From NCBI GenBank assembly GCA_010202845.1, contig CP047921.1, positions 450,001-482,000 on the forward strand: DNA of 32,000 bases, in the 5' to 3' direction. Shown here piece after piece: positions 24,273 through 29,505 of this stretch. This stretch comes from Candidatus Saccharibacteria bacterium oral taxon 488 (GTDB lineage: Bacteria; Patescibacteriota; Saccharimonadia; Saccharimonadales; Saccharimonadaceae). Under the pieces are notes generated by a model. The model had not been told where the DNA came from. It saw only the letters and a program-made list of their open reading frames with translations, and did not search any database. The translations under genes and the position numbers were made by a program. Position 1 is the stretch's first letter; each line of letters opens with the position of its first letter.

Positions 24273-24929
24273 ATGGCTACAGACTTCCAGGAAAAAGCTT
24301 GTGAAAAGGCTTTGCGTGAGTATCGTAAAAAATATTTAACAAAGAAAGAAAACCTCAATGCTGATGAGTCAACGGCACGCCTGATGGTCAATAGCCTGCT
24401 CAGTGTGGTGCTTGGATATACTCTCATTGACGAGATTAAAACAGAACATATGATTCGTGGTACATATGTTGACTACGTTGTGCAGCTAAATAAGAAAATT
24501 CATTTTATTGTTGAAGCAAAGGCCACCTCTATTGACCTCAATGAGCGCCACCTCAAACAGGCTGTTGACTATGCCTCAAACGAAGGCGTTGATTGGGTGA
24601 TCTTAACTAATGGTCGCTGCGTCGAGCTTCACCGCGTTATCTTTGAAAAGCCGATTCGCTCACAGCGTATTTTTGCCTATGACTTAACCAATTTATCAAC
24701 AATTAGAACTGCAGCAAAGCACCTAGTAAACCTCACCAAGAAATCAGTGCTCAGAGGTGATTTGGATAAATACTGGAAGCGTTTTGATGCGCTAACCGAA
24801 GACAACATGAGAAAGGCTATTAAGTCACCCGATGTTATTCGTAGCCTGAGACTGTTCATTAAGAAAAAGTCGACTATCAACTTTACCGATGCCGAGGTTG
24901 CCAAGGCGATTGACAAACTAATCAGTTAA
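24273..24929 (+). CDS. stand-alone type I restriction enzyme HsdR N-terminal-like (PD-(D/E)xK nuclease fold) protein
   Basis: 218 aa. ESTARLMVNSLLSVVLGY...VDYVV...HFIVEAKA (D...ExK, nt 24471-24521)...QAVDYASNEGVDWVILTNG matches the HSDR_N-type pattern. No helicase, methylase or specificity gene nearby. AT-rich by eye. Confidence 0.65.
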   Translation: MATDFQEKACEKALREYRKKYLTKKENLNADESTARLMVNSLLSVVLGYTLIDEIKTEHMIRGTYVDYVVQLNKKIHFIVEAKATSIDLNERHLKQAVDYASNEGVDWVILTNGRCVELHRVIFEKPIRSQRIFAYDLTNLSTIRTAAKHLVNLTKKSVLRGDLDKYWKRFDALTEDNMRKAIKSPDVIRSLRLFIKKKSTINFTDAEVAKAIDKLIS

Positions 24930-24980
24930 TTACCGTGCTTTCACTAAGGCTAGACCTGTCACCCCGCCAACAATCCCCCG

Positions 24981-25526
24981 CTAGTACAGCTGTGCCCACG
25001 ACGCAACATATCTATTGAGTCCATTTGGGCCGAGCCGCCCTGCACCGATACACTTCAACCTCAACTGCTGACCCAAGCCATTGACCGCAAAGAACGCCGT
25101 TGGATCAGGGCCACGCAGCACTCGTACCGCCCCCTGAATCGGCCGATCATTTAACTCAGCCTTACCAGCCACCGACACCCAGCCGATATAGAATAGCAAC
25201 TGACCAAGCTCGTCACCACTACCCTCAAACTGAGGCTGCAGCACCCCATACTTATTCCAGCCGCCAGCAACTGGCATCTGAAATCGTGGCGTCCGTTTAT
25301 GATCTGGCATCTGGCCCTCAACTCCTGGCATGATAAGTACTTTCTCCGGGTCAACAGCATCCGGGTCAACTTCGTGACATGACCATGGGCTGGAATGATT
25401 AATATCATATGCACGCCCTCCAGCCGTCAGTAGCCGCAGTGGCGATATCGCTACGTCCCCCATTCGTTTTAATAGACCATACGGGAGTGGCCGCAGTGGC
25501 GCTTCACTGTCAAATTGTTCTTTCAT
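24981..25526 (-). CDS. hypothetical protein, paralogue A of a tandem pair (181 aa)
   Basis: ATG 25526 with GGAGGAGG upstream; the track ORF extends to 25634 into the upstream gene. Aligns by eye with the neighbouring gene product: LRPLPYG..DVAISPL..SPWSCHEVDPDAVDP..FYIGW..FFAVNGLGQQL versus LRPEPLP..DVAMRPL..HPWHCRRDIDPSLIDP..FHIGW..FFAVHPDGRQI. Confidence 0.6.
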   Translation of the reverse strand: MKEQFDSEAPLRPLPYGLLKRMGDVAISPLRLLTAGGRAYDINHSSPWSCHEVDPDAVDPEKVLIMPGVEGQMPDHKRTPRFQMPVAGGWNKYGVLQPQFEGSGDELGQLLFYIGWVSVAGKAELNDRPIQGAVRVLRGPDPTAFFAVNGLGQQLRLKCIGAGRLGPNGLNRYVASWAQLY

Positions 25527-25539
25527 ACTCGCCTCCTCC

Positions 25540-26100
25540 TTATAATAATCGTACCTTTGGGTACTTGTTATCACCGAGCACACCGGTGTCCACAATCTCC
25601 AGTCCGATCTGCCTTCCGTCAGGATGTACCGCAAAAAACTCTGTCTCTAGGTGCGCTGGACCACTCAACATTCGCACGTATTGATCATTGATTGGTAGAC
25701 GATGGACTATTGACTGCTTTACCTGGCCACTCCCACGTTCACGCACTATCCAGCCAATGTGAAACGGCGGCTTAGCCCGCAGCACGGCATAATGCCGCCA
25801 GCCAACGAGCCCTGGCGCATGAAAAAGAAAAGAAAAGCGGCCCGGTAGTAGCTCGTCTGTTTCACCATTCGTCGTCACTGTCAGCGCTGGGTCTATCAGC
25901 GACGGATCAATATCACGCCGGCAGTGCCACGGGTGGGTCTCCTGCATACTGTCTCGGCGAAAACCGCCCAACACAAACATCAGCGGCCGCATTGCTACGT
26001 CCGCTATTTTTGTCCACATAGGCAGGGGCTCGGGGCGAAGAGCCGAGTGATTATGTTCGTCTCGCCGTTTCTCCATCATCACCTCGCCAGCGTCAGTCAC
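25540..26100 (-). CDS. hypothetical protein, paralogue B of a tandem pair (186 aa)
   Basis: GTG 26100 with AAGGAG upstream, overlapping the rsmD stop by 8 nt (alternative ATGs at 26079 and 26076). Its stop (25540-25542) lies inside the SD of paralogue A. No known motif. Confidence 0.6.
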   Translation of the reverse strand: MTDAGEVMMEKRRDEHNHSALRPEPLPMWTKIADVAMRPLMFVLGGFRRDSMQETHPWHCRRDIDPSLIDPALTVTTNGETDELLPGRFSFLFHAPGLVGWRHYAVLRAKPPFHIGWIVRERGSGQVKQSIVHRLPINDQYVRMLSGPAHLETEFFAVHPDGRQIGLEIVDTGVLGDNKYPKVRLL

Positions 26101-26644
26101 TTATCTCCTTACGGAAGTAAGTGAGGTGCGCACCCCCATAACTACGATTGTCCACCACAACAATTCCGTTCTGAATTGGCACCTCACCTATTCCTGAGTG
26201 TGATAATACCATATGTCCACCCGGTTTGAGAAGTCCCATCAGTCGCGAGACTGTGGAAAACTGCGGGTTGTGGTATGGTGGATCGGCAAAAATAAGATCA
26301 AACTCCTCTGTTACGCTCATGCTTTCTAGCCAATTTGCTACCGTTGTTTTTATTACAATAGAGTTTTCGCTGGCGCCCACGGTGCTAATATTTTCAGCAA
26401 TCACCCGCTGGGCGACGCGGTCTCGCTCCACGAAAACCACCGACTCAGCACCGCGACTGAGCGCTTCCAAACCAATCGCACCGGAGCCAGCAAAAGTATC
26501 CAGTACCCGCGCGCCACGCACGGTTTCGCCCAGTGAATTGAACATCGCCGAACGGACCCGCTCGCCCATGGGATGCGTCGTCGAGCCGGGCGGCGCCTGG
26601 ATGAATCGTCCGCCAAATTCACCAGCAATGAGCTTAACGCGCAC
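26093..26644 (-). CDS. rsmD: 16S rRNA (guanine966-N2)-methyltransferase
   Basis: 183 aa. IAGEFGGRFIQAP, VLDTFAGSGAIGLEALSRGA (SAM-binding motif), FADPPY. GTG start overlaps the upstream gene by 11 nt. Confidence 0.85.
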   Translation of the reverse strand: MRVKLIAGEFGGRFIQAPPGSTTHPMGERVRSAMFNSLGETVRGARVLDTFAGSGAIGLEALSRGAESVVFVERDRVAQRVIAENISTVGASENSIVIKTTVANWLESMSVTEEFDLIFADPPYHNPQFSTVSRLMGLLKPGGHMVLSHSGIGEVPIQNGIVVVDNRSYGGAHLTYFRKEISD

Positions 26645-27452
26645 GCTGTTCCTCGGCTAGCCACACTGCACTCAGCCAGCCCAGCACCACCGCACGAATA
26701 ATCAGCGGCATCAGTTGACGGTTGGTCTGCCGCGCCAGCTCCGTTGTCCAGCCAGTCTTGGCGAACTTTTCATACATGGCCATATCCGCCACCTCATGAA
26801 CGCAGCCAAGATAAAACGCCCGAAAGCCCGCCTGGCGTACTTCCTCAATGTCGCGCTGCTGCGGCAGGCCAGCAGCAAACCGTTGGTAGGCCACTACGCT
26901 AGCAACACCCGCCTCGAACGCCAGATGCATAGTCATCACGCCCTTTGCGCCCCAAAATTCCCAGTTATTGCGCAGGGTTTTTAACACCGTTTCGCCCGGC
27001 ATGAGGCTCTTTTTGATCAGCGAATTGCGGGTCTCCATGCCCTCACCACGTAGCTGAGCCAATTTCTCCTCCAGTGGAAAATGATGCGGTGGCGTCAAGC
27101 CATCAGTGATCGCGTGAGCCATCCATGCTGCTTCAAACGCTGCTCGCTCACAGTTATCAGCATTAAGCGCTGCTGCGAGATTAGTAATGTGTTGATCAAC
27201 CATCTCGAGGAGCGCCACGTCATTCGGATCATGCGGGTCAATGAAGTGCCACGGCTCATCAACGGCCGGACTTTTACGCTTAATACCATCGGGGCCATTA
27301 TTACCCTCGAAATGCAAAATCTGCCTGCTTGACGGAAAGTTGCACCACGACGGCAATAGCTGCACGATATGTCGCCGCGCGACCCGATCAATTTTTTGAT
27401 GAACACCCATCAGATTGCCTGACTTGGTGTGAAATGTGGTTCCTGAATACAT
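26634..27452 (-). CDS. zinc-dependent phospholipase C / S1-P1 nuclease-superfamily-like hydrolase (putative)
   Basis: 272 aa. GVHQKIDRVARRHI, WHFIDPHDP and AHAITDGLTPPHH fit the H-x3-D-x2-(T/Q)P-x-H metal-ligand pattern of that superfamily. Hydrophobic C-terminal helix (LMPLIIRAVVLGWLSAVWL). Confidence 0.45.
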   Translation of the reverse strand: MYSGTTFHTKSGNLMGVHQKIDRVARRHIVQLLPSWCNFPSSRQILHFEGNNGPDGIKRKSPAVDEPWHFIDPHDPNDVALLEMVDQHITNLAAALNADNCERAAFEAAWMAHAITDGLTPPHHFPLEEKLAQLRGEGMETRNSLIKKSLMPGETVLKTLRNNWEFWGAKGVMTMHLAFEAGVASVVAYQRFAAGLPQQRDIEEVRQAGFRAFYLGCVHEVADMAMYEKFAKTGWTTELARQTNRQLMPLIIRAVVLGWLSAVWLAEEQRAR

Positions 27453-27462
27453 ACTTATCTCA

Positions 27463-29505
27463 CTAATTTAGCGTGGTTAATCGCTGATAGCGACTGACGG
27501 CACGCGCCAGATGCTTATATTGTAGCAAATCCTGCCCCTCTTTGACAAAGCGCTCAGCCTCTGTCTGCGCACGGGCAATCAGCGGCGTGTCGCTCAACGA
27601 GGCAATTTTCAGGTTCAGCGCGCCATGCTGCGCTCGGCCGTAAATCTCGCCAGGGCCGCGCAGTTTCAAATCAACTTCCGCCAGGTAAAAGCCGTCTTGA
27701 GACTTCTCAATTTCCCTGAGCCGCTGGCTCGGCTTGTCGTGACTCGACAACATCAAATGACAAAAACTCTGGTGCTGGCCGCGCCCAACCCGCCCGCGCA
27801 GCTGATGAAGCTGGCTGAGCCCAAAATGATCAGCATTTTCGATGAGCATGACCGTGGCGTTCGGTACATTGACGCCAACTTCCACCACCGTGGTGCTCAC
27901 TAGCATATCAATGTCGCCGTCCGCGAATTGCTGCATAACCGCGGCTTTTTCCTCAGGCGGCAGTTTACCGTGCAACAATCCGACGCGGCGATGACGAAAC
28001 ATCGTTTTTGCCAATTTGTGATATTCCGCCTCGACCGACTTTTTGTCATTGTCAGGATTATCGTCAATCAATGGGCAGATGACATAGGCTTGGCGACCCT
28101 GGGCTAGCTCATGGTCAATGGTTTCATAAAGCTTCGGCGCCGAGGCCGGTGACCAAATTTTCGTTTGAATCGGCTGACGACCGGCCGGCAACTCGTCCAA
28201 AATAGAGATATCCAGCTCGCCATACAAGGTCAACGCCAGACTCCGCGGAATCGGCGTGGCGGTCATGCTGAGCAGATGCGGCATGTAGTCTGACTTTTGT
28301 AGCAACGCCTGCCGCTGCTTGACGCCGAACCGATGCTGCTCGTCGATCACCACAAACCCCAGCTTATGATACGCCACTTTTTCCTGAATCAGCGCGTGCG
28401 TACCAACCACCACGTTAATGGTGCCATTTGCTAAATTGTCCAACAGTTGCCGCCGCACCGCACCCTTGACGTGTCCTGTCAGCAGCGCCACTGACACGCC
28501 AAATGGCGATAATAATTCATCCAGCGTTTTGGCGTGCTGAGTCGCCAAAATCTCCGTCGGCGCCATGATGGCTGTCTGAAAACCAGTCTGCGCCACTTCC
28601 GCCGCTACCAGCCCGGCGACCACAGTTTTGCCCGAGCCAACATCGCCCTGCAGCAGCCTATTCATCGGATATTTGGACTCCAAATCTTGCAAAATCTGCC
28701 ATGCAGCGCGGCGCTGCGCGTTGGTCAGGGGAAATGGTAATTGCTCGACAAATTGCTTGACAACCGGCTGATTGAACGGAATGCTCCAGCCAGTCAACTT
28801 GGTTTGTTCTTGCTTATTTAGCTGCGCTGCCAAGATCATTTCAAACAATTCTTCAAATGCCAGCCGCTCACGACCGCGGGCAATTTCCTGATGATTTTTC
28901 GGCGCATGGAGAAACTTGACAGCTTCCGCGCGGCTGACTAACTTTTGCCGCTGGACGATATGCTCTGGCAGCGTTTCGGGCAAAAACTCCATGACGGGGC
29001 GCAGATTCCTCAGCAAATCCTGCACGGTTTTCGGGCGAAGGTTTTTAATGGATTTGTAGACTGGATGAATGCCCGATGTATGCTGGGCGTCGGACGTATC
29101 TGTTTGCTTGGCCAGTTCAACAGAGGGATTGCTGATCTGATAGCTGTTATATTGCATGCCAAATTGGCCAGAAAACATGAACTCGGCGTCGGATTTGAGC
29201 TGTGACTCACGGTATGGCTGATTAAACCAAACGGCCTTGACCTTGCCAGAATCATCCGCCAGCACCGCCGTGGTAATTCTCAGGCCCCGGCGCACAATCC
29301 GCGTCGAAATCGACTCGCAGCGCGCCCGCACCGTCACCTTGCCCGGCTGAAGATCAGCAATGTTAACCGCCGCCGAATAATCATCATACGCCCGCGGCAA
29401 AAAATCCAAGGCGTCCGCCACCGTCTCCAGACCCGCCGCCGACAGCGCTTGGGCGGTTTTGGGGCCGACGCCTTTGATGTGCGCGAGAGGGGTGGTTAGT
29501 TTCAT
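27463..29505 (-). CDS. recG: ATP-dependent DNA helicase RecG
   Basis: 680 aa. Wedge domain, GDVGSGKT (motif I), DEQHRFGV (motif II), QLHQLRGRVGRG (motif VI). Confidence 0.95.
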   Translation of the reverse strand: MKLTTPLAHIKGVGPKTAQALSAAGLETVADALDFLPRAYDDYSAAVNIADLQPGKVTVRARCESISTRIVRRGLRITTAVLADDSGKVKAVWFNQPYRESQLKSDAEFMFSGQFGMQYNSYQISNPSVELAKQTDTSDAQHTSGIHPVYKSIKNLRPKTVQDLLRNLRPVMEFLPETLPEHIVQRQKLVSRAEAVKFLHAPKNHQEIARGRERLAFEELFEMILAAQLNKQEQTKLTGWSIPFNQPVVKQFVEQLPFPLTNAQRRAAWQILQDLESKYPMNRLLQGDVGSGKTVVAGLVAAEVAQTGFQTAIMAPTEILATQHAKTLDELLSPFGVSVALLTGHVKGAVRRQLLDNLANGTINVVVGTHALIQEKVAYHKLGFVVIDEQHRFGVKQRQALLQKSDYMPHLLSMTATPIPRSLALTLYGELDISILDELPAGRQPIQTKIWSPASAPKLYETIDHELAQGRQAYVICPLIDDNPDNDKKSVEAEYHKLAKTMFRHRRVGLLHGKLPPEEKAAVMQQFADGDIDMLVSTTVVEVGVNVPNATVMLIENADHFGLSQLHQLRGRVGRGQHQSFCHLMLSSHDKPSQRLREIEKSQDGFYLAEVDLKLRGPGEIYGRAQHGALNLKIASLSDTPLIARAQTEAERFVKEGQDLLQYKHLARAVSRYQRLTTLN

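Follow-up and report, generated by a model that had tools for sequence, protein, structure and literature searches.

A tandem gene pair behind rsmD in Nanosynbacter represents an undescribed protein family of Patescibacteria, and one copy appears to lack the family's conserved site

Why do some Saccharibacteria carry two related genes directly behind rsmD, and what might they do there? In Firmicutes and Actinobacteria, rsmD and coaD are commonly adjacent. In Candidatus Saccharibacteria bacterium oral taxon 488 (genus Nanosynbacter), the place behind rsmD is held by two genes that we call A and B. We analyzed a stretch of 32,000 nucleotides (nt) of this organism's complete genome (853 kb, 99.8% complete), namely positions 450,001 to 482,000 of contig CP047921.1, and we refer to this stretch as the window. 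A first-pass annotation had described A and B as orphan paralogs in the usual slot of coaD, coupled to rsmD and possibly forming a heteromer. We find that A almost certainly belongs to a family that has not been described before, and that B is almost certainly a relative that kept the fold and lost the family's conserved residues. The link to coaD does not hold up.

The two genes, and the gene and junctions that precede them, are laid out as follows:

25540-26100, minus strand: gene A, 186 amino acids (aa), GTG start (open reading frame and translation)
24981-25526, minus strand: gene B, 181 aa, ATG start (open reading frame and translation)
26093-26644, minus strand: rsmD, 16S rRNA m2G966 methyltransferase (PF03602, E 1e-44; TIGR00095, 138 bits, above the cut-off)
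26093-26100, minus strand: 8-nt overlap of rsmD and A (rsmD TGA at 26093-26095, A GTG at 26098-26100)
25527-25542, minus strand: junction of A and B (A TAA at 25540-25542, GGAGGAGG at 25532-25539, a 5-nt spacer, and the B ATG at 25526)

Reading the sequence confirmed both reading frames on the minus strand, as well as the start of A 8 nt inside rsmD. The ribosome-binding sequence of B is also where it had been reported, at the stop of A: GGAGGAGG lies directly 3' of the TAA and 5 nt before the ATG. For A, an AAGGAG is located 4 nt 5' of the GTG. A might instead start at a pair of ATG codons (26079/26076) preceded by GAGG; these are 21-24 nt inside the gene, at the position where most homologs begin. 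The close arrangement of starts and stops at both junctions fits the claim of translational coupling. Matches to promoter or terminator consensus sequences at or between the operon's genes are weak, and they are about as numerous as in shuffled sequence. With no gaps or terminator-like sites between the genes, the layout fits co-transcription of A and B with the operon that runs from tyrS to rsmD.

A and B are nearly certain to be true paralogs. Their BLASTP alignment spans 176 columns with 28% identity and an E of 2e-20, well past chance; the first-pass annotation had estimated about 30% by eye, and the shared blocks that it listed are visible in the alignment. Relative to A, gene B has an insertion of about 10 residues (EGSGDELGQL) and a C-terminal insertion (YVASW).

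A word-indexed search recovered only close relatives. The family, which we defined by two profiles (A1 and A2), emerged when we searched 1.8 billion cluster representatives (clusters at 50% identity) exhaustively with a profile. This search found 375 clusters with E of at most 1e-3, of which 294 reached 1e-10 and 46 reached 1e-30, so the two proteins are not orphans. The matched proteins are nearly all 160-175 aa, single-domain, and aligned end to end. Both A (1.2e-79 with A1, 2.4e-53 with A2) and B (1.3e-63 with A1, 1.2e-40 with A2) match the profiles over their full length, and both have the fold-defining residues of this family of about 170 aa. The lack of a recognizable domain was borne out: Pfam, NCBIfam, PADLOC, and PHROGs contain no family that matches A or B. 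None of 42 diverse family members has a meaningful match in Pfam, and when A1 and A2 were searched against sequence profiles from the PDB, no match fell below E 0.1. In their source records, family members are annotated as "hypothetical protein."

All of the carriers that could be identified are Patescibacteria; one of them is from Candidatus Staskawiczbacteria. In an even sample of the window's phylum, 9 of 401 genomes carry the family, and these nine belong to several taxonomic families. By its sequence, A is almost certainly a canonical member of an undescribed single-domain family of about 165-175 aa that is thinly scattered across the Patescibacteria (the candidate phyla radiation, CPR).

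In a genome from the window's taxonomic family (G455; L036 7167-7451), just the C-terminal 94 aa of a family member are left. This remnant covers profile positions 74-170, is next to a response-regulator gene and gltX, and is probably what remains of a pseudogene.

To see what kind of fold the family might have, we made AlphaFold2 models of A with an 18-row alignment and then with a 56-row alignment. Their mean predicted local distance difference test (pLDDT) scores were 82.8 and 88.2, and their predicted template modeling (pTM) scores were 0.78 and 0.82. The predicted fold consists of N-terminal helices followed by a β-sandwich: a helix at 4-19 that is specific to the clade of A, a conserved helix at 28-44, short strands, a low-confidence segment at 85-98, and six strands in 103-174. 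In the model with pLDDT 88.2, the strands are at 60-62, 75-78, 103-108, 113-121, 127-133, 141-145, 151-158, and 168-174.

Foldseek found no significant match to either model in the PDB (best E 0.019; template modeling (TM) score normalized by the query at most 0.33). With the model of pLDDT 82.8 as the query, nothing in BFVD was better than E 0.005 and TM 0.23. The best PDB matches were carbohydrate-binding modules (CBMs) of Ruminococcus flavefaciens (5fu2/5fu3), the hook-cap domain of FlgD (7bhq, 3osv), and the Anabaena sensory rhodopsin transducer (ASRT; 2ii7). Like these sandwiches, the modeled A is compact and of similar size, with about 6-8 strands, and about 110 columns align with a target-normalized TM of 0.4-0.5. 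However, E is 0.02-0.2, identity is 7-14%, and there is no relation between the sequence profiles; these entries also lack the two N-terminal helices of A and its conserved Met, Gln, and two His residues, which we describe below. As far as the models go, the likeness is one of general shape and not of family membership. Cupins (3kmh, 4lul, 7ang, 6cd3) matched only with Foldseek probabilities of 0.03-0.16 and TM below 0.2, and the family has no Pfam match to them. The family lacks a described relative in sequence or in fold, and the predicted fold itself may prove to be new.

Could A and B nevertheless stand in for CoaD (phosphopantetheine adenylyltransferase, PPAT), as a non-orthologous replacement at its usual place behind rsmD? 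Besides the common adjacency of rsmD and coaD in other phyla, one could point out that coaD is missing from this complete genome. But coaE (TIGR00152) and coaBC (TIGR00521) were as undetectable as coaD (TIGR01510) in this genome, while control genomes did score, so there is no pathway for a replacement to serve. The only match to PF01467 in the genome is marginal (21.1 bits against a cut-off of 21 bits) and is to a 230-aa reading frame at another place in the genome. A survey of Saccharibacteria genomes also reported that synthesis of coenzyme A (CoA) and pantothenate is lacking (PMC11659515). Furthermore, none of 41 genomes from the genus (at least 90% complete) has coaD above the cut-off, whether or not it has the pair, and most of the 41 lack the pair. 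The significance that the first-pass annotation had attached to the "coaD slot" is thus not supported: coaD is absent across the genus regardless of the pair.

The proteins themselves do not look like CoaD either. Neither translation contains the (T/H)xGH motif of these nucleotidyltransferases, as had been noted before, and neither matches a Pfam or NCBIfam model at E of 1 or below. The predicted β-sandwich is not a Rossmann-like fold, the pair is sporadic, and homologs elsewhere are found behind pepN or other genes. The only feature that A and B share with CoaD is their position downstream of rsmD. Given the missing pathway, the modeled fold, and the missing motif, we consider a CoaD substitute to be ruled out for practical purposes; it has hardly any chance of being right.

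If the family is not CoaD-like, which residues might be important for its function? We aligned 195 members and counted conservation in the 187 that are not of the B type; the other eight are B sequences. Seven positions (numbered as in A) are the best conserved outside the structural residues, and all of them are replaced in B:

Position 41: M in 98% of the 187; R in all 8 B sequences
Position 50: E or D in 92%; Y in all 8
Position 53: Q in 97%; N in all 8
Position 55: T in 83%; S in all 8
Position 56: H in 98%; S in all 8
Position 59: N or H in 98%; S in all 8
Position 94: H in 98%; Q in all 8

The near-invariant pattern is [E/D]50-x2-Q53-x-T55-H56-x-W58-[N/H]59, together with M41 and H94. 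Gene A carries every one of these residues; the codons of M41 (25978-25980), Q53 (25942-25944), H56 (25933-25935), and H94 (25819-25821) are on the minus strand of the window. We infer that M41, Q53, H56, and H94 may form a site that binds a metal or a small ligand or that is catalytic. The first-pass annotation had proposed a different site, a Cys/His/Trp cluster (PWxC) shared by both proteins. Only the tryptophan of that cluster fits: W58 is conserved in 97% of the family, while the cysteine is present in just 17 of 187 members, and the conserved H56 of A is a serine in B.

In the B protein of the window, M41, Q53, H56, and H94 correspond to R31, N43, S46, and Q83. B alone has exchanged all four of these residues; at least two of them are missing in just 4 of the 187 other members. 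On the other hand, B keeps the fold residues D34, P39, G46, W58, F93, P96, G100, W101, Y104, G116, and W117 (A numbering), as well as R143, L145, G147, F155, F156, Q164, G173, G176, and L185. Judging from the alignment, B is nearly certain to be a paralog of A that kept the fold without the family's site residues.

The combination of histidine and methionine in the putative site suggests a soft metal or heme. There is some resemblance to copper-binding proteins that use His and Met, such as CusF, CopC/PcoC, and PCuAC: these are also small and β-rich, with conserved His, Met, and Trp close together in sequence. The candidate soft-metal ligands of A would be M37 (found in 60% of the family), M41, H56, W58, and H94. 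However, A has no Pfam match to these proteins at E of 1 or below, their PDB entries are missing from the top Foldseek matches, and the matches listed contain no cupredoxin, CusF, or CopC. The likeness could guide a metal assay but does not classify the family. One could go further and speculate that the family is an undescribed fold, apparently specific to Patescibacteria, with a metal (for example copper, or heme via His/Met) or a small ligand bound at M41/Q53/H56/H94, and that in this Nanosynbacter clade it became an obligate heterodimer of a binding and a non-binding subunit that serves the dealings of an episymbiont with its host. We consider this extended version to be quite unlikely.

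Even with its site residues gone, B is under selection. The ratios of nonsynonymous to synonymous changes (dN/dS) below were estimated by the Nei-Gojobori method from as many as 13 orthologous loci, and they serve as description only, as the genome pairs are interdependent:

A: 0.19
B: 0.28
rsmD: 0.10
p272 (the gene before rsmD): 0.04
recG: 0.04

Purifying selection acts on A as well as on B, though more loosely than on their housekeeping neighbors. Also, B was always beside A, and we saw no B without A among the loci examined.

These observations lead us to the following proposal. A would be the working subunit that bears the site, much like its single-copy relatives, and B would be a non-binding partner, structural or regulatory, in an A-B hetero-oligomer that derives from an ancestral homo-oligomer. 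In one subclade of Nanosynbacter, the pair closes the recG-p272-rsmD operon at its 3' end, and it would borrow the operon's transcription and translation through start signals that overlap or abut the preceding genes. It would provide a dispensable accessory function, with no functional link to rsmD and no role as a CoaD substitute. What speaks for the heteromer is that B is never seen apart from A and that, with its site gone, it retains the fold residues and continues to be subject to purifying selection; on these grounds, a complex that pairs a site-bearing with a site-dead subunit is plausible. In these respects A and B resemble pairs of active and inactive paralogs (heteromers of the pseudoenzyme type), which also are tandem duplicates with coupled translation and just one site-bearing copy, and in which the copy without the site has its fold residues and remains under purifying selection. 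Such pairs are an evolutionary pattern rather than a family, though. The pattern itself is familiar (an accessory gene is duplicated in tandem and one copy loses its site), and we do not demonstrate a new mechanism.

Taken as a whole (an undescribed family, a site-dead paralog B, a putative site, a putative A-B hetero-oligomer, and an accessory pair), we think that this account falls a little short of an even chance. Its descriptive parts are nearly certain; we hold the putative heteromer and the putative site more tentatively, at clearly less than even. Several observations weigh against the account. First, in an unconstrained maximum-likelihood tree, B is on a very long branch (1.23) that joins weakly to the protein P0058 and is not sister to A. 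Second, one genome (G033) has an intact A next to a destroyed B, which shows that A can do without B. Third, the segment of the model around H94 (85-98) is the least confident (pLDDT of about 60). Fourth, about 11 family members (~5%) have an additional N-terminal signal peptide, lipobox, or transmembrane segment, which leaves the family's compartment unsettled. Fifth, across the roughly 15 gene neighborhoods of the family that we compared, there is no common functional theme, only links that are local to a clade.

As to the tree, A falls in a clade with the single-copy Saccharibacteria proteins P0008, P0031, P0033, and P0207 (99 by the Shimodaira-Hasegawa-like approximate likelihood ratio test, SH-aLRT). 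Placing A and B together as one clade is not rejected by the approximately unbiased (AU) test (difference in log likelihood 1.15; p-AU 0.49). The data are compatible with an origin of B by tandem duplication in place, followed by fast divergence; given the free tree and the result of the AU test, this is indistinguishable from a separate acquisition of B. We also considered a foreign or phage origin of both genes and rejected it: their G+C content is that of the operon, and they have no matches in PHROGs or among viral sequences. A scan of viral contigs with the A-type motif gave no match either.

The long branch and the decayed copy of B raise another explanation: B might not be A's partner at all but a duplicate that was freed from the ancestral function and either took on an independent role or is drifting slowly towards loss. 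The tandem layout and the ribosome-binding context would then be leftovers of the duplication. This would fit with the dN/dS of B, which is the highest in the operon, and with the use of a single copy in all other lineages. It would also fit with the decay at two loci. The genomes G006 and G033 have in common a deletion of about 270 nt that removed the 5' half of B (ribosome-binding site, start codon, and the first ~90 codons), and in G033 (L042 2045-2830), the genome with an intact A, B has a second, internal deletion. Against this, an intact B is present at 7 of the 9 loci that allow a judgment. A dN/dS of 0.28, from 53 genome pairs, indicates clear purifying selection; about 20 fold-defining residues are kept; and a strong GGAGGAGG is maintained at ideal spacing. 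We rate the freed duplicate as unlikely, though well worth bearing in mind.

At the G006 locus (L045 600-1505), A is affected too: its codon for Q126 has become TAG. Decay at these two loci was stepwise, and B was the first to go.

The signal-bearing members suggest that the family might instead consist of proteins of the cell envelope or surface, with the hydrophobic helix (26-46 in A) as a signal anchor and the β-sandwich outside, perhaps binding components of the episymbiont's host or of the host's cell wall. Indeed, in 50 of 204 members a stretch of 19 residues at this conserved helix reaches a Kyte-Doolittle hydropathy of at least 1.6. The weak fold likenesses are to carbohydrate-binding modules and FlgD-type sandwiches, and some family members have genes for LytR_cpsA_psr proteins, glycosyltransferases, or GH1 proteins as neighbors. 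However, those fold matches are not significant, and the helix in A and B contains K, D, and R and has a hydropathy of about 1.0, which is not like a transmembrane segment. In the model with pLDDT 88.2, the helix has pLDDT above 90 and is contiguous with the domain, and it holds the invariant D34, P39, and M41, so it seems better explained as a core helix. The member of the lipoprotein type has the helix behind a long linker, which places it in the soluble domain of that protein. An envelope function for the family seems distinctly improbable.

The genes around the family bear on why the pair is found behind rsmD. In the window, the genes upstream of rsmD are:

26634-27452, minus strand: p272, 272 aa, PLC/P1-nuclease-like
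27463-29505, minus strand: recG

The order on the minus strand is recG, p272, rsmD, A, B. The block recG-p272-rsmD is conserved across the genus (57 of 61 genomes yielded rsmD), with rsmD as its last conserved gene and A and B appended to it. The slot behind rsmD (24930-26092 in the window, compared with L041-L070) is variable. It can hold A and B, an AT-rich HsdR-N-like gene, and a convergent GH13 gene; A and B and then GH13, without the HsdR-N-like gene (L017, L048); two small secreted proteins that contain cysteine (L049, L053); or a polytopic membrane protein of 216 aa (L059). It can also be empty, with rsmD directly convergent with GH13 (L068, L069). The pair was found in about 11 of the 61 species of the genus that we sampled, and A was present in 11 of 30 loci inspected downstream of rsmD. 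A profile search found A in 4 of 36 other species sampled from the genus, as well as in the window's own genome. The pair is accessory, dispensable, and sporadic, and is confined to a few species of oral Saccharibacteria.

The nearest A-type homologs (~50% identity), from other Saccharibacteria, are single genes that overlap or abut the stop of an M1 aminopeptidase gene (pepN):

L019 3305-3808: A-type gene behind pepN
L074 1297-1797: A-type gene behind pepN
L075 3014-3514: A-type gene behind pepN

They are followed by a gene for a conserved protein of about 255 aa with no match in Pfam. Because the slot behind rsmD is variable and close relatives are linked to pepN, the coupling to rsmD reflects the insertion site of an accessory gene and not a common function.

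The pepN linkage raises the possibility that the family is an accessory factor of adjacent hydrolases (a chaperone, inhibitor, or regulatory subunit), with the linkage lost in the window's clade. In another close clade, each of the three contigs examined has an α/β-hydrolase gene (Abhydrolase_1/6) 30-45 nt downstream of the family member and in its orientation:

L040 3320-4839: family member and α/β-hydrolase gene
L072 4001-5509: family member and α/β-hydrolase gene
L073 3658-5086: family member and α/β-hydrolase gene

In one more contig, the family member is followed by a 2',5' RNA ligase/LigT-like gene. But each linkage lies within one close clade and so represents about one evolutionary event, and the types of hydrolases are unrelated to each other. 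Many members have no hydrolase neighbor; ribosomal protein genes, for example, are upstream of some. Also, one genome (G000; L080, C1:589000-594500) has pepN without an A-type gene beside it: the synteny from pepN to RNase HII/UPF0102 (rnhB) and L19 (rplS) is kept, and the slot for the A-type gene is just 37 nt. We consider a role as a hydrolase accessory factor to be very improbable.

Patescibacteria have small genomes in which a large share of the genes has no assigned function, and our analysis defines one such family: at least 375 clusters without a Pfam model or a structural neighbor, in which a likely functional site can be pinpointed. B is a natural experiment, with the fold kept and the site erased, and it indicates which residues to test. 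The analysis also removes a misleading lead, the pair as a replacement for CoaD. In practical terms the finding is of modest importance: the pair can be dispensed with and has a narrow range, a connection to a major open question is not evident, and hypothetical families are common in Patescibacteria.

We made a few other observations around the locus. A distant family member on a contig from another of the Patescibacteria (L037 6001-12489) is about 2-6 kb from recG and tyrS (tRNA-synt_1b), the genes that head the window's operon; this could be coincidence or old synteny. Next to the pair in the window is the stand-alone HsdR-N-like gene of the PD-(D/E)xK type:

24273-24929, plus strand: HsdR-N-like gene, ~40% G+C (phrog_17239, E 3.6e-40)

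Species whose sequences otherwise differ by 5-10% have copies of this gene that are 98-100% identical. Finally, p272 has two allelic types within the genus (compared across L042-L070); the identity to the copy in the window is about 96-99% for one and about 66% for the other. The type is independent of rsmD identity and of the presence of A (in L052, A is found with the 66% type), which suggests recombination across the block.

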